DNA from: Escherichia phage PECP20
Reading direction: 5' to 3' (one strand)
Length of the DNA stretch: 64,000 nucleotides
Sequence record: OQ873415.1
The notes under the pieces were generated by a model that was not told where the DNA came from, ran no database searches, and was given only the letters and a program-made list of their open reading frames with translations. The position numbers and the translations under genes are program-made. The first letter of the stretch is position 1. The number at the start of each line of letters is the position of its first letter. Shown one piece after another: positions 2,763-55,768 of this stretch.

Positions 2763-3074
2763 TTATTTCCTCAGATTTTTCTTAACAACCTTCCAATCAG
2801 CTTTGAACATTTCAACGTCAGAGTGGCAAATCCAGAATCCTGCACTTTCACCATCTTCATAGAGTGGACATCCATCACATTCTTCGTTCCAACCCATTTC
2901 ACGTAAAGCTTCTTCAGCTTGTTCAAGGAGTTCAGCGTCTTTACCGACGATGTTGAAGTACCATTTACCTCTAACTTCAGAATCTTTGATGCTCTGACGT
3001 TGCAATCTCATTTTATTCTCCTTCACTTTTGATTTGATAGGGCTACTATAACATAACCCTATCTGATTGTACAC
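2763..3074 (-). CDS. hypothetical protein (frd.1/frd.2-like position)
   Basis: 103-aa ORF tightly packed between frd and next ORF; contains CDGC/ICH Cys-His pairs; no assignable function. Confidence 0.5.
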   Translation of the reverse strand: MYNQIGLCYSSPIKSKVKENKMRLQRQSIKDSEVRGKWYFNIVGKDAELLEQAEEALREMGWNEECDGCPLYEDGESAGFWICHSDVEMFKADWKVVKKNLRK

Positions 3075-3466
3075 TACTTTTTAAAAGTTTTTTGCAAAAG
3101 TTCGATGATTTCGTCGACGTTGGTTTCATCTACGATACAATGGATTTTTGTTACACCTAAAGTTATACCTTCGTTAGTAGTTTGAGGCTTTACTAAATCT
3201 ACCTCAGTAAAGTATTTGAACTCGTCAGGATAAATCTCAAAATAAGTTCCAATTTCACCACCGGCAGAACATACAGTACCATCTTCCATAGTTACACTTA
3301 CTACGTTTGGCGTATCGCTATCATAATCAGGTTCCATTCCGTTTACAACAAAACTAGGCCCATGGAGTTCAATCAATTTTAACATCTTAGCGTTATTATG
3401 TGGTGCTTCTTGAACAAAGTCGTCTTTAAATAAAGGGTTAATGATATAAGATTTTCCGATTTCCAT
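3074..3466 (-). CDS. hypothetical protein (frd.3-like position)
   Basis: 130-aa ORF, 1-nt stop/start overlap with downstream ORF; early promoter upstream. Confidence 0.5.
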   Translation of the reverse strand: MEIGKSYIINPLFKDDFVQEAPHNNAKMLKLIELHGPSFVVNGMEPDYDSDTPNVVSVTMEDGTVCSAGGEIGTYFEIYPDEFKYFTEVDLVKPQTTNEGITLGVTKIHCIVDETNVDEIIELLQKTFKK

Positions 3467-3495
3467 TTTGATTTCCTCATGTTGTTGATAGGTCT

Positions 3496-3524
3496 ATACT
3501 AACACATCCATGGAAGAAGTAAAC
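3496..3524 (-). promoter_or_regulatory. Early promoter upstream of ORF 3074-3466
   Basis: Minus strand GTTTAC ...17 nt... TAGTAT; same gataggtctata start-region motif. Confidence 0.45.
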
Positions 3525-3555
3525 AACTTTTTCGGCAATTTACAGATACTCAAAA

Positions 3556-3573
3556 GGGAGACCGAAGTCTCCC
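3556..3573 (-). terminator. Rho-independent terminator after gene 32
   Basis: Minus strand GGGAGAC-UUCG-GUCUCCC followed by UUUUG, immediately after stop. Confidence 0.65.
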
Positions 3574-3579
3574 GATTTA

Positions 3580-4482
3580 TTATAGACCAGCTAACAGGTC
3601 ATCGAGGTCGCCATCATCAGAGGATGAGGTAGAGCTCATGAAGTCATCTTCAGTTTTTGCAGAACTAAAGGCTTCCATGTCTTTATCAAAATCGTCAAGG
3701 TCAGAAGCAACTTTATCTGCAACAGAAGCTGCTGCGGCTGCTGCACCACCAAGAGCGGCAGTACCAAGAACCTTAGCGAAAGATTCATTTAATTTTTCAA
3801 AGGATTTGAACTGGTCTTTAGCCGTCAAAGTAGTAAGGTCTACCATCTGGTCATATAGTTCTTTCTGGAATGCTTCGTCATTAATACGAGGAATTTCAGA
3901 TTGACCCAAGAATTTAGATTCGTCGTAGTTGCTAAAACCAGAAACCTGCTTAGCTTTCAGAACGAAGTTAGCACCTTCAAACGGACAAGTAACATCAACT
4001 GGAGTTTCACCCATTTCGGTATCAACTGCAATCATTGCATTGATTTTGTCCCAAATCTTTTTACCGAAACGATATTTAAATACTTTACCTTCGTTATCTG
4101 GAGCTTGAGGGTCTTTAACAACCAGAATATTAGCCCAATAAGAAGTTTTACGTTTCAGTTGAGAATATTCAGTTTTGTTGGTATTGTACAGGTCATTTTT
4201 ACTAATGTACTGACATACAGGACAAGAGTCGTAATCACCATGTGTAGAAGAGCAATTTTCAATATACCATTTACCATTTTTCTTGAAACCGTGGTTAACA
4301 AGAATTGCAAATGGTAGTGCATCATCAGTTTTTGCTGGCAAGAAACGAATTACCGCTTGACCATTACCTGATGCATCTAGCTTCAGCTTCCATTCGCCTT
4401 TATCTTCTGAAGAGAAACCTTTGTTACCGTTCAGTTTAGCCATTTGAGCAGCGAGGTCAGCAGTAGATTTACGTTTAAACAT
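3580..4482 (-). CDS. 32: Single-stranded DNA-binding protein gp32
   Basis: 300 aa; [23 protein letters not shown]... zinc-binding Cys/His cluster and acidic Ser/Asp-rich C-terminus as in T4 gp32. Confidence 0.95.
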
Positions 4483-27577: not shown

Positions 27578-27778
27578 TCACAAGTTACGTTTAAAAATTT
27601 CTGCTACTTCAAGAAGTTCTTCTTTAGTAGCTGTATCGGTTTGTATTTTATATCGAATTTCTTTAAAGCGTTCTTTAAAGGACTCTGCTGATTCGATATC
27701 AAAAAATCTTTGGATAAGCCGGAATTCCCGGAGCACTGCTTTATCAAAAAGTTCCAAGTCCACGTTATACGTTCTCAT
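27578..27778 (-). CDS. rIIA.1-like small protein
   Basis: 66 aa, position immediately upstream of rIIA. Confidence 0.55.
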   Translation of the reverse strand: MRTYNVDLELFDKAVLREFRLIQRFFDIESAESFKERFKEIRYKIQTDTATKEELLEVAEIFKRNL

Positions 27779-27870
27779 AATATTCTCTTCAGTAGATTCC
27801 TAGGGCACTATTACTAAAGACCATATAATCTATCATCTTATGTGTAATAGTGCCTCAGGCGATTCAGGAT

Positions 27871-28971
27871 TTACGCTGTGAAGATTTTATCCCACATCGC
27901 AACAACTGCATCTCGGTTATACTTCTTCCATACGGCTTCAGCACGTTTAACTCGAGCTTCGTATGTGTCAGTGAATTCTAATACAGCTTTTGTGTAAAGC
28001 GCAACTACTTCTTTCTTAGGAGTAGAGGAATCAATTTCTACACGCACAGTATCTGGGTCATATTCGAATGTCGCGTGCGGATAATCCTTAAAAACTAACT
28101 GAATCACAGGGACACCTTTAGAGATGGCTTCAATAGAACTATTCTCTACCGTACCCGTGTCAGGACACGTATTGATAAGTGCTTTAGCTGTTTTAAGACG
28201 TTCCATGATTTCACTGTGTGGAGCATCAATAATAACAGGATACTTAGCCGGTGGTGCCCATTTACTAGGACAGTATCCTGCACCATTTTCGCCTAGTGCT
28301 TTAATCGCTTCAAGAGCAACATCAGTACGACGCATTTTAGTGTCATAACGTTGTGCACTAATAATCAGATCAGTCGCCGGAAGAACTTCAGGTTTCTCAT
28401 TCAAACAAATAACCGGATAATCTTCGGCTTCAAACAACGGATTTGCTCGCCAATAATCATAATCAATTTTGTCAGTCAGACCTGAAGTCATATAACAATA
28501 TTTGCGTTCAAATTCACGGAAGGCTTTAGTAGGAGCATAACTCTTACCACCGTTCTTATGAATTTGAATAGTCTGGTCCCAAATTTGAACAATACCACGA
28601 GATACCGGTTCAAATGGTGTTGCCATAAAATTCTTATGAACTTTAGAGAGACCTGCGTCTTTAATTGCCTGAACGGTTAGTTTGGTCGGTTCCATTGTAA
28701 CAACGAAATCGTACTCATTAATGCCGGCTAGTTCAACAATCTTACGAGCCATAGTATAACTCATACCTAGACTGAATTTAGTCAGATGACCAACAGGATG
28801 ATGATTAACCTTCCAATCACCAAATGTGTCATTATCAAAACCGATATAATCAATATCGGCACCGATAGAAACTAAATATTTCAACACATTTAAATGTACT
28901 GCTTCAAGACCACCTTGTACACGTTCAGGATTAAATGGGACTGCACGAGATGGGATAAACATAACTTTCAT
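27871..28971 (-). CDS. putative GT-B fold glycosyltransferase (candidate DNA hmC sugar transferase)
   Basis: 366 aa; C-terminal donor-binding motif PDTGTVENSSIEAISKGVPVI matching the E-x7-E / EAxxxGxPVI signature of GT-B (GT4-like) enzymes; occupies the gene 60/mobA slot of T4. Confidence 0.6.
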   Translation of the reverse strand: MKVMFIPSRAVPFNPERVQGGLEAVHLNVLKYLVSIGADIDYIGFDNDTFGDWKVNHHPVGHLTKFSLGMSYTMARKIVELAGINEYDFVVTMEPTKLTVQAIKDAGLSKVHKNFMATPFEPVSRGIVQIWDQTIQIHKNGGKSYAPTKAFREFERKYCYMTSGLTDKIDYDYWRANPLFEAEDYPVICLNEKPEVLPATDLIISAQRYDTKMRRTDVALEAIKALGENGAGYCPSKWAPPAKYPVIIDAPHSEIMERLKTAKALINTCPDTGTVENSSIEAISKGVPVIQLVFKDYPHATFEYDPDTVRVEIDSSTPKKEVVALYTKAVLEFTDTYEARVKRAEAVWKKYNRDAVVAMWDKIFTA

Positions 28972-28997: not shown

Positions 28998-29015
28998 AAG
29001 CTCCTAAAGGAGCTT
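28998..29015 (-). terminator. Stem-loop overlapping gene 39 stop, followed by U-rich tract
   Basis: Plus text aagctcc-taaa-ggagctt; separates gene 39 from the glycosyltransferase gene. Confidence 0.4.
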
Positions 29016-30831
29016 AGGACATCCATTCTTTACGAAGTTCTGAATCATCACCCAACAACATTTCAAAGAGTTCTTTCCAATTTTCAGGAAGTTTAACTAC
29101 GTCGTACACAGGGTTCTGAATCATTTCACGATACTCTGACTTTTCAAGGGAGCCTAATCCCTTGATGTATCGAATACTATGCTTAGGCAGTGTATCTTTA
29201 ACTTCTTCATACTCAGCTACAGTATAAAACCATTTTTGAGTTTTGCCAATTTGTGCAATAATTACAGGTGTTTTAACAAAGCGAATACGTCCTTGTTCAA
29301 ACAATTCAGGCCAATTACTAAAGAAAGCAAGCAAAGCCGGATAGATACTTCCAAGACCGTCATGATCGGCATCGGTCATAATTGCAATATTACGATAGTT
29401 CGTATTCTCTGCCTTTTCACCAAGAATAAGACCTGTGATAGCACAGATATCGAATAACTCTTTGTTCTTCATCATATCAGCATATGACATACCCCAGCTA
29501 TTCATCACCTTACCACGTAATGGGAATCCACCGTGTAGTTCACGGTCACGAACATCAATGAGATATCCAATTGCCGAATCACCTTCTGTTAAGAACAATG
29601 TCGTATCTGCATCTTTACCACATTGGTTAGCTTTAATATGCTTATGAACCTTAGCTTTAGTTGCCTTTTTAGCTGCTTTAGTTTCTGCAGCCTTTTCTGC
29701 TGCCAATTTACGAGCTAATGCTGCTTCAACAATAGGCATAATCAAGGCTTCGTTTTTAAGAAGTGCCTGGGCAATTTTCTTAGCATCTAATTGGATATGA
29801 TTACGAATATCACCATACGTTGACGTTAAACGTTCTTTAGTCTGAGAATCAAAACGCATGTTGCTCATGTCTCGAATAAACATCAACATTGTGAGGCATT
29901 CTTTAACACGAGCTTTAGTGACTTCAATACCCTTATATTTCTTTTTAATACCTGGCAAAAGATGTTCGCAGATATCATCCATTACACATTCAACATGATG
30001 ACCACCATTTTTAGTATGGATGTTATTCACATAAGTTAAATGACGGAAGCCATCTGGTGATGTTGTGAATGCTATAGAGACTTTATCATTTTCTTGAATG
30101 ATGTTATCTTCACCAAATTGTTTAGCAAATCGTTTAAAATTACCATCGACCTTTTTACCATTAAATGTGAACTTGATATCAGGATAAACGACTGCCAATG
30201 TTTGAAGTCGATCTAAAGTAATATCTAAATAAATTTGAGATAAATTATGCTCTTCAAATGAAGTGAAATCAGGAGTGAAGATTACTTTAGTGCCTTTACC
30301 TTTAGATTTCTTAGAAGACCATGATTTGTTTTCCATTCCGTTTGAACAGTTAACAGTGATTTCATTTTCGCCATCTGACGTGATGCCTGTAAACAACGTA
30401 GAGAAGATATTAGTTAAACTACTCCCGACGCCGTTCATACCACCAGTCTTGCGTTCAGAGTCATCACCAAAGTTACCACCGGCCTTTGGAATAGTCCAGG
30501 CTGCTACAGGCCCAGGAATTTGTTCACCTGTTTGGTCGGTAACTAAACCTTGAGGAATACCACGTCCGTTATCTTCCACCGAAACTTGATTATTTTTAAT
30601 TTGCACATCAATTTTATTTGCAAACTTAAATGATGTACGAATAGCTTCATCAACCGAGTTGTCAATAATCTCATCGATTAATTTAACCAGGCCAGGAACA
30701 TATTCAACTTGTTGATATTTACCAAACAAAAAACGCTCGTGGGCTTCTTTAGCAGAAGAACCAATATACATACCACTACGTTTCTTAATATGTTCTACAT
30801 CTGACAATACCTTAATTTCATTTTTAATCAT
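29014..30831 (-). CDS. 39: DNA topoisomerase II large subunit, unsplit 39+60 fusion
   Basis: 605 aa single ORF; GyrB-like ATPase N-terminus plus TOPRIM/C-terminal region that in T4 is encoded by separate gene 60. Confidence 0.9.
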   Translation of the reverse strand: MIKNEIKVLSDVEHIKKRSGMYIGSSAKEAHERFLFGKYQQVEYVPGLVKLIDEIIDNSVDEAIRTSFKFANKIDVQIKNNQVSVEDNGRGIPQGLVTDQTGEQIPGPVAAWTIPKAGGNFGDDSERKTGGMNGVGSSLTNIFSTLFTGITSDGENEITVNCSNGMENKSWSSKKSKGKGTKVIFTPDFTSFEEHNLSQIYLDITLDRLQTLAVVYPDIKFTFNGKKVDGNFKRFAKQFGEDNIIQENDKVSIAFTTSPDGFRHLTYVNNIHTKNGGHHVECVMDDICEHLLPGIKKKYKGIEVTKARVKECLTMLMFIRDMSNMRFDSQTKERLTSTYGDIRNHIQLDAKKIAQALLKNEALIMPIVEAALARKLAAEKAAETKAAKKATKAKVHKHIKANQCGKDADTTLFLTEGDSAIGYLIDVRDRELHGGFPLRGKVMNSWGMSYADMMKNKELFDICAITGLILGEKAENTNYRNIAIMTDADHDGLGSIYPALLAFFSNWPELFEQGRIRFVKTPVIIAQIGKTQKWFYTVAEYEEVKDTLPKHSIRYIKGLGSLEKSEYREMIQNPVYDVVKLPENWKELFEMLLGDDSELRKEWMS

Positions 30832-49218: not shown

Positions 49219-49767
49219 TTAACGAGCCCATTTGATGATTTCTGTAATCAAACCATTACGTTCGCTTGCATTAAATCCTATAATTTTGTTAGCACCATCA
49301 TGATTAAGTAATTGATACGTTTGGATTTTGTTATGAATTGCAAACTCTTCAAAATGTGAAATGACTGTATTAAAACCGAATGAAGACAAAGTAATAAGGT
49401 CGTCTTCAAAACTTTCAGTCATTTCATTACGTGTTAAAATAATTGTGAACACATCATGGTTTTGGCAAAGACGAACATAGTCCTGTTCATAAACATCAAG
49501 AACAGAGTCCGCATCTTGCCGAATACGTCCATAAACCCAGTTACTAATATATCCACGGTCTAACAGATAAATCTTAGTAGGGTCTAAATAATTCAACATC
49601 GTTTCGAAACAGCCAACTTCATTTCGAGACTTAACATCGAAACGTCCATCAACTGTTCGTTTAGGAAAATCAATCTTTACATATCTTTCACTAATTTCCA
49701 TTATGTCATTAATGAAAGTTGTTTTACCAGCATTATCTGGGCCGTCTACTAAAATAATTTTAGCCAT
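49219..49767 (-). CDS. P-loop kinase-like protein (unknown substrate)
   Basis: 182 aa; Walker A GPDNAGKTT at residues 9-17; size and layout of small nucleoside/nucleotide or sugar kinases; not a T4 gene at this locus. Confidence 0.5.
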   Translation of the reverse strand: MAKIILVDGPDNAGKTTFINDIMEISERYVKIDFPKRTVDGRFDVKSRNEVGCFETMLNYLDPTKIYLLDRGYISNWVYGRIRQDADSVLDVYEQDYVRLCQNHDVFTIILTRNEMTESFEDDLITLSSFGFNTVISHFEEFAIHNKIQTYQLLNHDGANKIIGFNASERNGLITEIIKWAR

Positions 49768-49768
49768 T

Positions 49769-50668
49769 TTATTCCTCGATTACGACATCTTCGTATTTAG
49801 GTATATTATATGGTGAAGAAATTAAAGCATTAAAGTAGATGAACTCACCAAGACCTGGATGGAATACTTCTTCAGGATTTTCGAAATATTGAATCTTCGG
49901 GCGTCCTTTAAGAATTTGATAGTACTCAGTTTTAGTTGGTTTAAAAATTCGAATCAGCGCTTCTTCAGGATACTTATTTCTGTCGAAGCTATTATTTGGA
50001 TCGGTTATATAAAGCGGTTGACCTAATTGAATTGCACATTCAACCACTTGTTCAAAACGATAACATGGGTCACTAATTCGAAATGGATGAAAAATACCAT
50101 CTAGATGAATAGGAGCCAAATCACCTACAAGACGCTGCATGATGGAAGGACGTATAACTTTCTGAGTTACGATAATCTTATTACCATCTGCACCTGCGTT
50201 AACCAGCACTTCTTTTTGACGTTCATTCAACACGGTAGTTTGAAGTGAACGATTAACTGACAACATATCGGTTTTTAAGAATTCGTCAATATAAAAACGT
50301 TGTTTATTAGGGTCTGCAGTGATATTGAAATTGAATTCTACATCAAAAGCGCCGCCATAACCAGTGATATCTGTGATTAGAAAATCACAATCATAATAAT
50401 CAATTAATGAATCAACCACAAATTCATTTTCAGTCCAGAAATATTTACGAGTGTTATACGCGTTATCTTTATACCATAATGGAACAAACTTAAATTCTGG
50501 GAAAAGACGTTCGCATTCTTTAATATCAGATGCATTACGTGGATATGTAATCACATCACCCGGATTAGCACGGTGCAAATGAAGTTGGAAGTTGCCATCC
50601 TTAAGGATAGCATACTGTCCAGTTTCATAAGACCGCATACTCAAGATTGGTACGCGGAAAATAGCCAT
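49769..50668 (-). CDS. hypothetical protein occupying T4 beta-gt locus (possible transferase)
   Basis: 299 aa; no confident motif (a DCD tripeptide after a hydrophobic stretch could be a DxD); translationally coupled to flanking genes. Confidence 0.45.
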   Translation of the reverse strand: MAIFRVPILSMRSYETGQYAILKDGNFQLHLHRANPGDVITYPRNASDIKECERLFPEFKFVPLWYKDNAYNTRKYFWTENEFVVDSLIDYYDCDFLITDITGYGGAFDVEFNFNITADPNKQRFYIDEFLKTDMLSVNRSLQTTVLNERQKEVLVNAGADGNKIIVTQKVIRPSIMQRLVGDLAPIHLDGIFHPFRISDPCYRFEQVVECAIQLGQPLYITDPNNSFDRNKYPEEALIRIFKPTKTEYYQILKGRPKIQYFENPEEVFHPGLGEFIYFNALISSPYNIPKYEDVVIEE

Positions 50669-51384
50669 TAGTCAAGGAATCCTTTAACATAATCAAAATC
50701 ACGTTCAAACACATGGGCGCTTACCATGGTATGAGTATAATCACCAACTTCTACACCGCATTCGTTAGCGATATAATGAAGTAATTTTCCTTGGAGATAA
50801 AAATCCAACTGCATAACAACAGCACAGTTCTGAGAACGCATATGACAGTGGGTATAAAGCTTACCATCACGAATATAATAAGTTACTGAGTCAGTACATG
50901 GATATTCAAGTGTTTCGTCCGAATCAAGCAAAGCCTGATCAGAACTTTCTAGAATTTGGAACACAACTCTTCGAGAGTTAGGTTTTTCTTTAAGTTCTTT
51001 TAGAAGAGTTGGTAATTGGGCCGCAATGCGAGGGCCATAGAAAGTGTTGAAGTTCGCCGGCAAAACATCTGATTTTGGTTTAGAAATAAATTTAGCGACA
51101 TTAGGATATGCCTTAAACGCTTCTTCTGCGTTGGTACCACCAGAAATCATAAACTTCCAGAAGTCTTCGGCATATTCATAAGAGATGCGGTTAATACGTG
51201 GGTCGGTCATTTTGAATGATGATGGAGTGTCAACAACTACTGTCATAGACCCAATTTCATTACAACGTCCAATACGAGAATCAGTTACGAATTCGGGGTT
51301 TTCTAAAATTTCACGATTGACTGCTTTAAATGCGGTTTGAAAATCTGCGGCTTTGATATATTTCATTGTGTTATGTTTTCCCAT
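50668..51384 (-). CDS. 42: Thymidylate-synthase-fold pyrimidine hydroxymethylase, gp42-like (dCMP hydroxymethylase)
   Basis: 238 aa; motifs NSRR, PCTDS (catalytic Cys), MRSQN and C-terminal SAHVFERDF parallel T4 gp42 NPDSRRG / MCTNT / MRSND / SLHVYSRHF as recalled. Confidence 0.6.
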   Translation of the reverse strand: MGKHNTMKYIKAADFQTAFKAVNREILENPEFVTDSRIGRCNEIGSMTVVVDTPSSFKMTDPRINRISYEYAEDFWKFMISGGTNAEEAFKAYPNVAKFISKPKSDVLPANFNTFYGPRIAAQLPTLLKELKEKPNSRRVVFQILESSDQALLDSDETLEYPCTDSVTYYIRDGKLYTHCHMRSQNCAVVMQLDFYLQGKLLHYIANECGVEVGDYTHTMVSAHVFERDFDYVKGFLD

Positions 51385-51426: not shown

Positions 51427-51666
51427 TTATTTGAATTTCTTGACAATGTTGATATAACGTAAAGCTTCAGAATCTATACTTCCAAGAACACTATGAAGGA
51501 ATGCATCAGTGTAGTATTCCAATTGAACAGGTTCTTTAATCACTTTAGCCGCTTTGGTTTCAAACAGGCCCATAAGGGCCTTTTTAAGAATTTGTTCGTT
51601 AGTGTTCAGTTTCATAGTCAAAATCTCTTCGTTAAGTTTATAATTAAAACTTTTTCTAGAAATCAT
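51427..51666 (-). CDS. hypothetical small protein
   Basis: 79-aa ORF, coupled to upstream gene (ATGA-type overlap). Confidence 0.35.
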   Translation of the reverse strand: MISRKSFNYKLNEEILTMKLNTNEQILKKALMGLFETKAAKVIKEPVQLEYYTDAFLHSVLGSIDSEALRYINIVKKFK

Positions 51667-52823
51667 TCCGGGTACCTCAAAGCGTCATCAGAGTTAGTTA
51701 TATCAATAATAGATATGGAGTTTTCTGCTAACCCGTTTTTAGATAATTGACGTTTATAATACCTTTCACAATATGTACACGTTGACCCACAGATTTCATT
51801 AGCACAATCAAAATCTGGATGTCTGAACCACCTTTTTTCTAAAAAGCCATCTAACAAAGAGGTTTCAATATTTACTGTATGTGAAAACTCAGTCTCATTT
51901 TCAAGAGTGAAAATAGTCTCTAAAGGCTTCCACAGTTCTAACAAATTACCTTCAAACTTTTCAGAAGCGTATGCTTCAAGAACTTTCAAAATGTAGTCTG
52001 TGCTACCTGTACGTCCTGAAACTTTGAATTGAGTGATACCAATATCATTATAAAGTTTCAAATCTTGAGGACGAACAAAACGAGTTCTCAACCAGTTAAA
52101 TGGGTCTGTATCACGAGCTTTAATACAGTGCTGCATAGGATATCCATTTAAGGATTTAGCATCATCAGCGGTAACATCAGTACTATGGAAAATATAGCAA
52201 GAGTCACGATAACTACAATGTGTTGTATACCCTTTACCAGCATTAGAACAGAACTCATTTACAAGAACTTCAAATATTATATTGTTCTTATTGCAAAACT
52301 CTGCTGCACGCTTCAGGAAAGAAACTGAACGGTTCTTATGAATTCCGCAACAGACCTTTTTGATGTTATATTGGTCATGTAAGTATTTGATTTGAGTTAC
52401 CGCATCGACATGTAGAATTGTTGAAACTTCAATCTCAATATCTTTATTGACTTCACGAACAATTTCCATAACAACAGGGTTAGCGATAGTAATACGCCAT
52501 ACGCCTATTGACCAAAGATACTGAACATAATCCTGAATAGCTTTCTTCTTCCACTCAACTAGTTCTCTTTTTGAACCAGGATTTATCGTGTTGAGTGTAT
52601 AGTTAAAGCAAATACCTAATTCGTTACAACGTTTAACGTAGTCTTCTAACATCTTTTTGTCAACGTCAGGAAGCCTAAAATCAGGTCTGGCTGCTACAAA
52701 AGCCATTTCTCTTGTAGAGCCATATACTTCGTTTATCAAGCTATTAGGATAGGTTTTATTGAGCTCTACGATTTTATCAAGAAGAGCTAAATCAAAATTC
52801 GTTCCGATTTTAAAAGTATTCAT
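51663..52823 (-). CDS. Cys-rich putative metalloenzyme (possible Fe-S enzyme, U32-like?)
   Basis: 386 aa; many Cys including C-terminal CANEICGSTCTYC (C-x4-C-x3-C-x2-C) and HCSYRDSC resembling the U32 signature CxSYxxxC; assignment speculative. Confidence 0.45.
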   Translation of the reverse strand: MNTFKIGTNFDLALLDKIVELNKTYPNSLINEVYGSTREMAFVAARPDFRLPDVDKKMLEDYVKRCNELGICFNYTLNTINPGSKRELVEWKKKAIQDYVQYLWSIGVWRITIANPVVMEIVREVNKDIEIEVSTILHVDAVTQIKYLHDQYNIKKVCCGIHKNRSVSFLKRAAEFCNKNNIIFEVLVNEFCSNAGKGYTTHCSYRDSCYIFHSTDVTADDAKSLNGYPMQHCIKARDTDPFNWLRTRFVRPQDLKLYNDIGITQFKVSGRTGSTDYILKVLEAYASEKFEGNLLELWKPLETIFTLENETEFSHTVNIETSLLDGFLEKRWFRHPDFDCANEICGSTCTYCERYYKRQLSKNGLAENSISIIDITNSDDALRYPE

Positions 52824-52879: not shown

Positions 52880-53281
52880 TTATAGATTTGGTTTATATGA
52901 TTTAAATGTTTCGAATTCGCCTTTATTCATAAGAGCTTTGAATTCGTCAGGACGCATAGCTTTGTCGTCGATAATCCAATCATATACTGGTTTATGTGTT
53001 AGCAAATTATGGTACTTCAAACCAATGTTTTCCAAGTTCTGAATCAGACTTGGGAGAATGTCAATTGCTATACGACCAGGACCTACCGACTTCATACCAC
53101 GGGCAGTGTAAAGCGTTATGGTATGCCCTGCATCATACAGGGCATTAATGGCAGACACCATTTCGACGTCTGGTTTGAAGTTCACGTAATCACGATTGTT
53201 ATTCCACTCTGTTATACAATCATCGACATCAAAACAAAGATTAAGCATGTTTTCTACACGGTGCATTAGATTCGTTCCCAT
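52880..53281 (-). CDS. putative HAD-superfamily phosphatase-like protein
   Basis: 133 aa; N-terminal FDVDDC (DxDx motif I-like) followed by TLYTARG; weak. Confidence 0.4.
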   Translation of the reverse strand: MGTNLMHRVENMLNLCFDVDDCITEWNNNRDYVNFKPDVEMVSAINALYDAGHTITLYTARGMKSVGPGRIAIDILPSLIQNLENIGLKYHNLLTHKPVYDWIIDDKAMRPDEFKALMNKGEFETFKSYKPNL

Positions 53282-54951
53282 TGATGAGTGATATCGCCGC
53301 CGATTGGACGATAGGAAACACCAGTTTCTTTATCAGTTAGTACCCATTTACCAGGATTTTTTGTAATCAGAGTAGCCGTTACAGGTTCTGCTACGTCATA
53401 ACTAATAGAGCCGTCTTGAAGTACACGGCCCATGTTACGTAATTGCTTAGTCAGAAGTTCCATACCTTTATAATATGCGGCAACCGCTTTAAGTGGATTA
53501 TTCTTGAAATAACCACCTAATGCAATCCAGATAATTGCTACTGCCAAATGATGATACTCGTTAAACGAACTCATCTTTCCATATTTGTAAACTAATGGAT
53601 TGATGTTAATAGTCAAATTACAAGTTGTTTCATCAATAGTAAACTGACCCCAGGTCGGATTAGCATTGAATTCATCATAACCTGAAACAGCATAAAGCAC
53701 TTTAGCTTCATCATACAATTTTGGCCCGTAAATCTTGGTTTCACCAAAATATCCACGAGGGTCGATAAACTTGACTTCGCCGTTATCGGTAATCATAGTA
53801 TTACTGAAGTTCGGGTCACCATGAATAACAGAGTACTGTCCCTGAGAACGGTTATGATAACGAATAAGATGTTCTAAAGCTTGTTTCAACATTGGCTTCA
53901 GACGTCCAATCTTAGTGTAGTTCACATGTGTGATTTTACCAAATGAATCAATCAATGGCTGAATGCTTTCACAACGATCAATAACTTTCGTATAGAACTC
54001 TTTAGTGAAATCACGGCGAACAGTTTCAGGACTTACAAAATAAGTGTCCGTGCTGAATTTCAGTGCATCTAAAATTGCATCAACAATTTGTGGACGAGCA
54101 AGACTTGATTTGGATTTAATATATTCAAATGCCGGCTTACCTTTAATACGTTCCATTTCAAAATTATTTTCATTTACCGAAACTAACTGAGGAACTGAAT
54201 CTGATTTCACTTTCAAATACCATGAAATCTCATCTTTTTGAAGAGCTCGACCTTGTTCGGTTAACGCGAATTTAGTTACAGTTTCTTCGCCAATTTCAAC
54301 TGCATTAAAACTACGATTCAGTTCACGAACTTCATGAGCCTTTTCAAGTTTAGGCATATCACCTAAATCAATTAGATTCATAAGCTCTGATTTATTGAAT
54401 GCACTGCCGTAAAGGAATTCTACGAAATCACGACCTTTGCAGTATTCGTGAATTTCCTCATCAGTAGAACCCATGTAGAATTCCCAGTCTTTGAACTGAT
54501 AAATTCCTACAACATTACCACCTGTTGAACCTACGTTAGTGATATTTTCACCATCGAAATTATATCGACATTCATCACCCTTAACATAGATTGCGTTAAC
54601 ATTCCAAGACCATGAACCAAAGTCAGGAATAATATCACACCAGTTAACAATTACGTTATGGCCATCTAAATCTTTGTATAATTTAGCAAGAGCATAAGCA
54701 GAACCATACGCTTCATCAACTGTACGAATAGTCACATTGAACCCTTCTTGCTCGCAATAAGCTCGAACAGTTTCAGCAAATTTTGAATGAACTACTACAA
54801 TAATTTCATCTGCGCCAAGGTCAGAATAAATTGTATACAAATTGCTCAGAATAGTGTCTTGTTTATAGTTAACAAGCACCTTAGGAATATGGTGAGTAAT
54901 TGGATATAAACGAGTTGCTAATCCAGCACCAAGAATAACAGCTTTTTTCAT
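53266..54951 (-). CDS. Bifunctional sugar-1-phosphate nucleotidyltransferase (N-term) / APH-like anomeric sugar kinase (C-term)
   Basis: 561 aa; N-terminal MKKAVILGAGLATRLYPIT (G-x-G-T-R-L nucleotidyltransferase motif); C-terminal VIHGDPNFSNTMITDNGEVKFIDPRGYFG (HxDxxxxN catalytic loop plus IDxR of choline-kinase/APH fold). Confidence 0.6.
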   Translation of the reverse strand: MKKAVILGAGLATRLYPITHHIPKVLVNYKQDTILSNLYTIYSDLGADEIIVVVHSKFAETVRAYCEQEGFNVTIRTVDEAYGSAYALAKLYKDLDGHNVIVNWCDIIPDFGSWSWNVNAIYVKGDECRYNFDGENITNVGSTGGNVVGIYQFKDWEFYMGSTDEEIHEYCKGRDFVEFLYGSAFNKSELMNLIDLGDMPKLEKAHEVRELNRSFNAVEIGEETVTKFALTEQGRALQKDEISWYLKVKSDSVPQLVSVNENNFEMERIKGKPAFEYIKSKSSLARPQIVDAILDALKFSTDTYFVSPETVRRDFTKEFYTKVIDRCESIQPLIDSFGKITHVNYTKIGRLKPMLKQALEHLIRYHNRSQGQYSVIHGDPNFSNTMITDNGEVKFIDPRGYFGETKIYGPKLYDEAKVLYAVSGYDEFNANPTWGQFTIDETTCNLTININPLVYKYGKMSSFNEYHHLAVAIIWIALGGYFKNNPLKAVAAYYKGMELLTKQLRNMGRVLQDGSISYDVAEPVTATLITKNPGKWVLTDKETGVSYRPIGGDITHQWERI

Positions 54952-54992: not shown

Positions 54993-55136
54993 CTAGTTAA
55001 AGCATTCATACTTTGCCTGTAGACCAATCATAATCCATCCAATTACAAGTGTTGGAATCATTACTGGAGCCGTTAAGCCCCAGTAGATAGTCATGGCAAG
55101 CATCAATAGTAAAAGTCCTATTGTTATTGCTTTCAT
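54993..55136 (-). CDS. small hydrophobic protein (47 aa)
   Basis: Hand-translated: MKAITIGLLLLMLAMTIYWGLTAPVMIPTLVIGWIMIGLQAKYECFN; ATG overlaps stop of SIS gene; possible Imm-like membrane peptide. Confidence 0.3.
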   Translation of the reverse strand: MKAITIGLLLLMLAMTIYWGLTAPVMIPTLVIGWIMIGLQAKYECFN

Positions 55137-55768
55137 TGTTCGCCTCGTAACATGGCACCTAGTGCACCACCAGGGTGGAACTTAAGGAAGTCATTAGAGG
55201 TAAATCCACGTTCAGACGAAAGGTTGATAGCAAACGTATCGATAAGCGCTAACAACAATGTAGTGGACATGGTCGGAGCCAGAGAATTCTCATCAACCTC
55301 TACCGCGATGCCTGTACAGAACGTATAATCAAAAAGAGCTTCGTATTCTTGCGGAATGTCAGGGTTACAATGTAACAGAATCTGTTTAACCTGAGGACGA
55401 ATCATACGAAGATGTTTAGCAACACCTATCATTTCTTCAGTCTTACCAGAACGACTGATGTGAACTAATACATCATTAGGTGCAATAAATCCTGCGTCGC
55501 CATGAGAATAATGCCCGGTGTTCAAATACATGCTAGGAATACCTAGTGAAGCAAAAGTCTCGGAAGCTTTAGTTGCGATATTAGCGTTCTTACCAACACC
55601 TGTAATAATTACTCGGCTTTCATAATTACTCAGTCCAGGGCGACGAAGAGTTTCAAGAATAGCATTATATCGGGCAGAGTTTTGACTAATTACTTTAGCC
55701 ATAGTGGCAAGAGATGAAGCTTGTTTTACGATTGCGTCAATAGCGATAGTGATTGGTGTAGTTTTCAT
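55133..55768 (-). CDS. SIS-domain sugar-phosphate isomerase (arabinose-5-phosphate isomerase KdsD/GutQ-like, no CBS domains)
   Basis: 211 aa; ITGVGKNANIA...HGDAGFIAPNDVLVHISRSGKTEE...APTMSTTLLLALIDTF...FLKFHPGGALG parallels the KdsD SIS domain motifs as recalled. Confidence 0.65.
   Translation of the reverse strand: MKTTPITIAIDAIVKQASSLATMAKVISQNSARYNAILETLRRPGLSNYESRVIITGVGKNANIATKASETFASLGIPSMYLNTGHYSHGDAGFIAPNDVLVHISRSGKTEEMIGVAKHLRMIRPQVKQILLHCNPDIPQEYEALFDYTFCTGIAVEVDENSLAPTMSTTLLLALIDTFAINLSSERGFTSNDFLKFHPGGALGAMLRGEQ

Follow-up and report, generated by a model that had tools for sequence, protein, structure and literature searches.

In the DNA of phages RB69, NP, Bas46 and Bas47, arabosyl groups are carried on 5-hydroxycytosine (PMC13326640; PMC13390438; PMC12923530). 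Restriction enzymes and certain CRISPR systems are blocked by arabinosylated 5-hydroxycytosine, a recently characterised hypermodification that also bears on therapeutic phages. By NMR, RB69 DNA contains β-D-Araf-(1→3)-α-D-Araf ether-linked to C5 of 5-hydroxy-2'-deoxycytidine; mono- and di-arabinosylated cytidine occur in Mosigvirus NP at a ratio of 1:4, and Bas46 and Bas47 are doubly arabinosylated. The sugar in DNA of the RB69 type is arabinose; glucose is absent (PMC6024577; PMC13326640). [quoted passage not shown] Deletion of the Bas46 arabinosyltransferase Aat renders the phage sensitive to a plasmid-encoded defence system (PMC13216743).

For RB69, it has been proposed that the first (α) transferase is gp46:47 and that gp3 follows as the second (β) one (PMC13326640), and the same two-enzyme layout was described in Mosigvirus NP (PMC13390438). 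RB69 gp3 (ORF003c) had been put forward in 2018 as 'the' arabinosyltransferase, with a similarity to the T4 α-glucosyltransferase reported from HHpred comparisons with deeper profiles (Thomas et al., 2018; PMC6024577); the structure of a near-identical orthologue with UDP followed in 2025, and gp3 was placed in the 5-hydroxycytosine arabinosylation pathway in 2026. The most direct biochemical evidence comes from Acinetobacter phage DLP3, in which gp76 and gp77 together transfer a third Araf from UDP-Araf onto mono/di-arabinosylated RB69 DNA in vitro; plain 5-hydroxycytosine DNA was acted on by no DLP3 transferase, and gp79 was inactive (PMC13326640). The same authors consider that the first transfer may take place either on the nucleotide or on DNA.

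The locus between rIIA.1 and gene 39

We analysed a stretch of 64,000 nucleotides from Escherichia phage PECP20 (OQ873415.1), referred to here as the window. An ATG-initiated open reading frame on the minus strand (27871-28971) encodes a protein of 366 amino acids and, as a preliminary description of the sequence had it, lies between rIIA.1 (27578-27778; Pfam T4_RIIA1, E = 2e-30), on the rIIA side, and gene 39, encoding the large subunit of topoisomerase II (29014-30831; DNA_gyraseB, HATPase_c and Toprim domains; phrog_543). Over this stretch the DNA is the same as that of Escherichia phage CAU_ECP01 (100% identity), and matches at the DNA level were obtained in 179 phage records, mainly Mosigvirus. 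The encoded protein is identical to RB69 ORF003c/gp3 (RB69p003; NP_861693) at 363 of 366 residues, and the RB69 gene occupies the same locus. The gene is thus RB69 ORF003c/gp3 in another Mosigvirus isolate, already known and in itself no new biology.

The T4 gene order at this locus is rIIA, rIIA.1, 60, 60.1, mobA, 39, with no gene of this kind, which agrees with the preliminary description. The further statement that the transferase stands in place of gene 60 does not hold: residues 493-605 of the gp39 encoded in the window share 89% identity with T4 gp60 in its C-terminal region, which means that genes 39 and 60 form a single fused gene here. In Dhakavirus VR5 and Serratia phage CBH8, the gap between rIIA.1 and gene 39 contains two small open reading frames and no transferase. 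The GC and GC3 contents of the 366-amino-acid gene are like those of the neighbouring genes, and horizontal acquisition as judged by compositional bias was rejected.

The 42-nucleotide gap between gene 39 and the transferase gene contains no clear independent promoter. A short hairpin on the minus strand (28998-29015) overlaps the gene 39 stop codon and is followed by AAGG and the transferase ATG; its fold is not significant (z = -1.1). A strong stem-loop on the same strand (27803-27859) lies in the 92-nucleotide spacer that runs from the transferase stop codon to rIIA.1, with a ΔG of -28.5 kcal/mol and z = -4.4, none of 200 shuffled sequences folding equally well.

Identity and fold of the 366-amino-acid protein

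The profile of phrog_8302, labelled 'unknown function' in PHROG, covers residues 1-366 of the 366 (E = 1.6e-222). A sequence profile search of the PDB gave one match (E = 2.6e-195), corresponding to entries 9IQZ and 9IR0, described in Foldseek as 'phage HY126 glycosyltransferase' in the apo form and with UDP, respectively (98% identical; released 2025-07-16). The closest structural neighbours after HY126 were GT4-type GT-B enzymes (BshA, PimA, WaaG, GtfA and MshA). The protein has the two Rossmann-like domains and the C-terminal nucleotide-sugar site of the GT-B class, and the earlier glycosyltransferase call is borne out both by this fold and by the near-identity to the HY126 crystal structure. 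The AF2 model reached a pLDDT of 62, with residues 115-188 of the N-terminal domain below 50, and the ranking of folds beyond the self-match rests mainly on the C-terminal domain. We attribute the mediocre model to limited alignment depth, the phrog_8302 family being small and restricted to phages.

Family databases had little to add. Scans with Pfam, NCBIfam and PADLOC gave no match for the protein, those with Pfam and NCBIfam not even at E = 1, and the protein together with six family members hit no Pfam family at E ≤ 1. It accordingly lies below the gathering thresholds of PF00534 and PF13692, the families of CAZy GT4 / Glycos_transf_1, and is connected to Glycos_transf_1 only through the bridging protein P0017 (PF00534, 34.6 bits), with an hhalign probability of 94% over 83 columns. 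Comparison of its profile with those of the T4 α- and β-glucosyltransferases by hhalign gave probabilities of 0.3% and 0.2%, respectively, neither enzyme was among the top structural matches, and the HHpred link to the T4 α-glucosyltransferase reported in 2018 was not reproduced by our profile comparison.

The preliminary description had recognised a donor-binding motif with an E-x7-E pattern at the end of the protein. The motif PDTGTVENSSIEAISKGVPVI is present (28102-28164, minus strand), as is its EAxxxGxPVI part; it occupies residues 270-290, 76 residues short of the C-terminus, and the strict E-x7-E pattern is missing. The sole E-x7-E in the protein is the unrelated pair E86-E94, and the protein therefore lacks the EX7E signature of CAZy GT4. 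When aligned to P0017, Thr272 takes the position of the first Glu, with a one-residue insertion; what is kept of the GT4 motif is the second Glu (E281) together with the EAxxxGxPVI part. Residue E276 is invariant in the family alignment, but is offset. Judging from these alignments, PDTGTVENSSIEAISKGVPVI represents the EX7E region of GT4 enzymes in a variant form.

The sugar cluster and a second GT-B protein

All genes of the sugar cluster, at 49.2-55.8 kb of the window and 21 kb from the 366-amino-acid gene, are on the minus strand. They encode a thymidylate-kinase-like nucleotide kinase (49219-49767; phrog_761), corresponding to RB69 gp45 and DLP3 gp78 (PMC13326640); a GT-B-fold protein of 299 amino acids (49769-50668; phrog_3891; no Pfam match), homologous to RB69 gp46:47; a 5-hydroxy-dCMP synthase of the thymidylate-synthase family (50668-51384; Pfam Thymidylat_synt), homologous to RB69 gp48; a small open reading frame (51427-51666); and a U32-like protein (51663-52823). 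These are followed by a HAD-like phosphatase (52880-53281; phrog_1238), the equivalent of RB69 gp51 and HY126 AfhF, which converts Araf-1,5-P2 to Araf-1-P (PMC13326640), and by a nucleotidyltransferase/kinase of 561 amino acids (53266-54951), the equivalent of RB69 ORF53_52c and HY126 AfhE. The latter protein matches Pfam NTP_transferase in its N-terminal part and, weakly, kinase families in its C-terminal part; the bifunctional enzyme makes UDP-arabinofuranose (PMC13326640; PMC6024577). The last gene encodes an arabinose-5-phosphate isomerase (55133-55768; Pfam SIS; phrog_5670), the equivalent of RB69 gp55.

The window thus encodes two GT-B proteins, of 366 and 299 amino acids, which are unrelated at the sequence level. 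That no T4-type α- or β-glucosyltransferase occurs in the window was stated earlier and agrees with our tblastn searches (E > 1); the 299-amino-acid GT-B protein had been missed. Its AF2 model, built from an alignment of 40 sequences, is a confident GT-B fold (pLDDT 94.7), and its best PDB matches in Foldseek were MshA, UDP-GlcNAc 2-epimerases and other GT-B proteins, the HY126 transferase among them. The gene directly adjoins that of the hydroxylase, and we regard its product as the best candidate for the base-proximal α-arabinosyltransferase. A UDP-xylose pyrophosphorylase activity was reported for the Thanatos homologue of this protein (PMC12838424); should this be its true role, the first transferase would have to be another protein. 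The isoelectric points of the transferases were uninformative with regard to DNA binding.

The modified base

In the preliminary description, the acceptor was hydroxymethylcytosine (hmC). The thymidylate synthase (ThyA) homologue of the window shares 25% identity with T4 gp42 and has RSQN where the T4 enzyme has RSND at the D169 position; the D169N exchange is the signature of 5-hydroxy-dCMP synthases (Lee et al., PMC13326640). This gene is the only member of the ThyA family in the window, which leaves no candidate there with the Asp of a hydroxymethylase. It matches PDB entries 9IQC and 9IR2, structures of the HY126 enzyme, at 534 bits; the two entries seem to come from the HY126 series that also includes 9IQZ and 9IR0. 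As relayed in PMC13326640 from He et al., the HY126 homologue contains flavin in its crystal structure and is a dCMP 5-hydroxylase that uses molecular oxygen. The base specified by the window is 5-hydroxycytosine and not hmC, and the ThyA homologue is not a hydroxymethylase of the T4 type.

Distribution and copy number of the transferase family

Against 1.84 billion representative proteins, an exhaustive search with HMMER gave only 16 matches at E ≤ 1e-3, of which 10 were clear members (E ≤ 1e-10); word-indexed homologue searches, including one with the profile, recovered only 5-6 clusters. By tblastn, the 366-amino-acid protein was found in 211 phage records that fall into two groups only: Mosigvirus-type phages of Escherichia and Shigella (~155 records), with at least 95% identity and one place each, and phages of Acinetobacter (55 records), with ~42% identity and two places each. 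An identical set of records was recovered when a divergent family member was used as the query. In a metagenomic T4-like contig, a divergent member of the family adjoins dsbA and ligase genes.

The 299-amino-acid transferase has a wider distribution (350 phage records), which also includes phages of Klebsiella, Serratia, Enterobacter, Proteus, Yersinia, Edwardsiella and Pectobacterium as well as Dhakavirus. No member of the 366-amino-acid family was found in the records from Serratia, Klebsiella, Enterobacter, Proteus, Edwardsiella and Dhakavirus, where the gene for the 299-amino-acid protein is present. Conversely, phrog_8302 occurred only in Mosigvirus-type and Acinetobacter records, and these also contain the cluster transferase. 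The number of family members is zero in cluster-only phages (Thanatos, one pentose), one in the di-arabinosylated Mosigvirus phages and two in the tri-arabinosylated DLP3; from this survey of records, copy number tracks glycan length.

Proposed role in glycan extension

We consider it likely that the 366-amino-acid protein is a chain-extending β-1,3-arabinofuranosyltransferase that adds the second sugar after the cluster-encoded steps. The pathway would begin with the ThyA-like hydroxylase, predicted to make the 5-hydroxy-dCMP that is incorporated into DNA at replication. The 299-amino-acid GT-B protein encoded in the cluster would place the first α-D-Araf on 5-hydroxycytosine, and the 366-amino-acid protein, a putatively soluble, GT4-like GT-B enzyme, would bind the UDP-arabinofuranose made by the cluster in the same window and move a second arabinofuranose onto O3 of the first sugar. 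The expected product is β-D-Araf-(1→3)-α-D-Araf-O5-cytosine, the di-arabinosylated base of RB69-type virions. The most likely function is therefore that of a UDP-Araf:arabinosyl-5-hydroxycytosine-DNA β-1,3-arabinofuranosyltransferase, which would extend a DNA-linked glycan rather than attach a sugar to the base. Placement in the DNA-sugar pathway of the cluster, as suggested earlier, is supported by membership of the same PHROG as the DNA-active DLP3 gp76 and gp77. The acceptor and the step assigned in the preliminary description are probably wrong: the ThyA homologue has the D169N exchange of 5-hydroxy-dCMP synthases, and the enzyme that attaches the sugar to the base is probably not this one, since the 299-amino-acid GT-B protein is present in all arabinosylating lineages and the 366-amino-acid family is absent from the cluster-only ones.

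We infer that the 366-amino-acid protein itself carries out the second, β-1,3 step, and does so alone. Two observations run counter to this. DLP3 gp76 and gp77 are active only as a pair, but Mosigvirus has a single member of the family; and both transferases resemble enzymes of the retaining kind, as judged by their closest structural neighbours, although the anomeric configuration changes from the first linkage to the second. If both steps draw on the same donor anomer, either the 366- or the 299-amino-acid enzyme must invert on a scaffold of the retaining type. A self-sufficient and mechanistically unusual furanosyltransferase, in which the variant motif (Thr272 and the invariant Glu276) goes together with the setting of the β-1,3 linkage, by this enzyme alone, on a sugar of duplex DNA, is a reading that we hold to be doubtful. 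Inversion on a retaining-type scaffold, if true, would constitute a new stereochemical solution for the extension of a DNA glycan.

That the 366-amino-acid enzyme instead performs the base-proximal step, adding the first arabinose to 5-hydroxycytosine in DNA while the 299-amino-acid protein does something else, would fit the proposal of ORF003c as 'the' arabinosyltransferase (Thomas et al., 2018; PMC6024577) and the choice of its orthologue as the transferase crystallised by the HY126 group; the Thanatos study, moreover, assigns pyrophosphorylase and not transferase activity to the homologue of the 299-amino-acid protein, a family without demonstrated first-step activity in vitro. This assignment seems unlikely to us, because the 366-amino-acid family is missing from many lineages with the full cluster, some of them in genera for which arabinosylation of the DNA has been reported, its copy number scales with the length of the glycan, the DLP3 paralogues work on previously arabinosylated DNA but not on 5-hydroxycytosine DNA, and the 299-amino-acid protein has a confident GT-B fold of its own. 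An acceptor other than DNA (for example a protein, host LPS or capsule, or a small molecule) is brought to mind by the neighbours beyond the phage orthologue, which act on lipids, polysaccharides, small thiols and proteins, by the 21 kb that separate the Mosigvirus gene from the sugar cluster, and by the divergent member beside dsbA and ligase genes. We consider this very unlikely, given that the family is confined to phages that also carry the 5-hydroxycytosine/UDP-Araf cluster and that both DLP3 paralogues are encoded inside the cluster and are active on DNA in vitro. In the preliminary description, matches to LPS or polysaccharide transferases only were to speak against a role on DNA; such matches are literally what the searches gave, but they are not a valid refutation, as activity on DNA was shown for paralogues of the protein.

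That the 366-amino-acid enzyme is a T4-like glucosyltransferase with hmC as its acceptor is suggested by the shared GT-B fold, by the published HHpred similarity to the T4 α-glucosyltransferase (PMC6024577) and by GenBank entries in which Acinetobacter homologues are labelled 'putative DNA alpha-glucosyltransferase'. Such a function is nevertheless extremely improbable: the profile comparison with both T4 enzymes was without signal, the phage makes 5-hydroxycytosine and not hmC, RB69-type DNA has arabinose but lacks glucose (PMC6024577; PMC13326640), and the DNA chemistry found in RB69, NP and Bas46/47 already contradicts it. We thus retain extension of the DNA-linked glycan by a second arabinose as the preferred function.

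Comparison with related glycosyltransferases

No difference of substance separates the 366-amino-acid gene from RB69 gp3 and the HY126 glycosyltransferase, which are the same gene. DLP3 gp77 and gp76 resemble it in their full-length match to phrog_8302, their identity (43% and 41%, respectively) and the motif TGTVE(N/H)xSxEA. Unlike the Mosigvirus gene, those of DLP3 are two tandem paralogues, 58% identical to each other, which sit beside the kinase gene within the cluster. The step reconstituted for DLP3 is also a different one, namely the third, β-1,5-linked sugar, whereas Mosigvirus has one copy and stops at two sugars. With the retaining GT-B enzymes of the GT4 type (PimA, BshA, WaaG, MshA and GtfA) the protein shares the two-Rossmann architecture, a UDP-sugar as donor and the C-terminal EAxxxGxPVI helix, whose Glu binds ribose; it differs from them in having a sugar on DNA as the acceptor and a furanose donor (both predicted), and in the replacement of the first Glu of EX7E by Thr.

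The T4 α- and β-glucosyltransferases are likewise phage GT-B enzymes that use a UDP-sugar and act on modified cytosine in DNA after replication. They differ in their glucose donor, in the hydroxyl of hmC as acceptor and in genomic position, and have no detectable sequence kinship with the 366-amino-acid protein. In T2 and T6, a second-step β-α-glucosyltransferase makes gentiobiosyl-hmC. If the 366-amino-acid enzyme adds the second sugar as predicted, this enzyme is its closer functional analogue than either of the T4 glucosyltransferases.

The second sugar is expected to alter the set of host nucleases and defence systems to which the DNA is accessible. Knowing the enzyme that sets glycan length would explain the difference between Mosigvirus phages (two sugars), Acinetobacter phages (three) and the remaining lineages (one), and would make the modification state predictable from the genome sequence alone. 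A practical outcome of this analysis is the correction of annotations for the 366-amino-acid gene, the 299-amino-acid transferase and the hydroxylase. The first goes by 'hypothetical protein' in the majority of the ~200 deposited genomes, and the other two are mislabelled as 'RNA polymerase binding protein' and 'hydroxymethyltransferase', respectively.

Enzymes of the sugar cluster

The ThyA-family gene of the cluster (50668-51384, minus strand) is labelled 'deoxycytidylate 5-hydroxymethyltransferase' in the source record. Because its product carries the D169N signature (RSQN) and scores 534 bits against the crystallised enzyme of phage HY126 (9IQC/9IR2), its sequence indicates that it makes 5-hydroxy-dCMP, not hm-dCMP. 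Also within this Mosigvirus sugar cluster lies a U32-peptidase-like gene (51663-52823, minus strand; 386 aa), described in PMC13326640 only as a 'sugar or heterocycle reductase' and having no counterpart in the cluster of Acinetobacter phage DLP3.

The 299-aa cluster protein (49769-50668, minus strand), annotated in deposited genomes either as 'hypothetical' or as 'RNA polymerase binding protein', is confidently predicted by structure modelling to adopt a GT-B fold (pLDDT 94.7). The roles given to its family conflict, PMC13326640 proposing the protein as the first arabinosyltransferase whereas PMC12838424 describes the homologue in Shewanella phage Thanatos as a UDP-xylose pyrophosphorylase.

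Both this protein and the 366-aa transferase (27871-28971, minus strand) most closely resemble retaining GT-B enzymes. RB69 DNA has an alpha linkage at the first sugar but a beta linkage at the second; given a single anomer of UDP-arabinofuranose as donor, one of the two transferases must invert.

The transferase locus and its variants

A strong stem-loop (27803-27859, minus strand; dG -28.5 kcal/mol, z = -4.4) with an 11-bp core stem lies in the spacer that separates rIIA.1 from the stop codon of the transferase gene. No T-run follows it, and a terminator is annotated in this region in some deposited records.

In Escherichia phage LH01 (PP434429; positions 301-1400 of locus L010) the transferase is divided into two ORFs of 275 and 58 aa, the break, which falls near the donor-binding motif, being a frameshift or else an artefact of sequencing. 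If real, it would constitute a natural null allele, for which mono-arabinosylated DNA is predicted. Shigella phage JK45 (NC_054940; positions 301-1904 of locus L011) encodes an intact transferase followed downstream by a partial duplicate of 136 aa.

The T4-like JGI metagenome contig Ga0489998_000752 (positions 3040-4224 of locus L006) encodes a divergent member of the family, 394 aa long and 34% identical, which adjoins DNA ligase and dsbA genes; the variable slot holding the transferase family thus differs between T4-like genomes. A putative family member is likewise present in a single record that bears the label 'Tegunavirus'.
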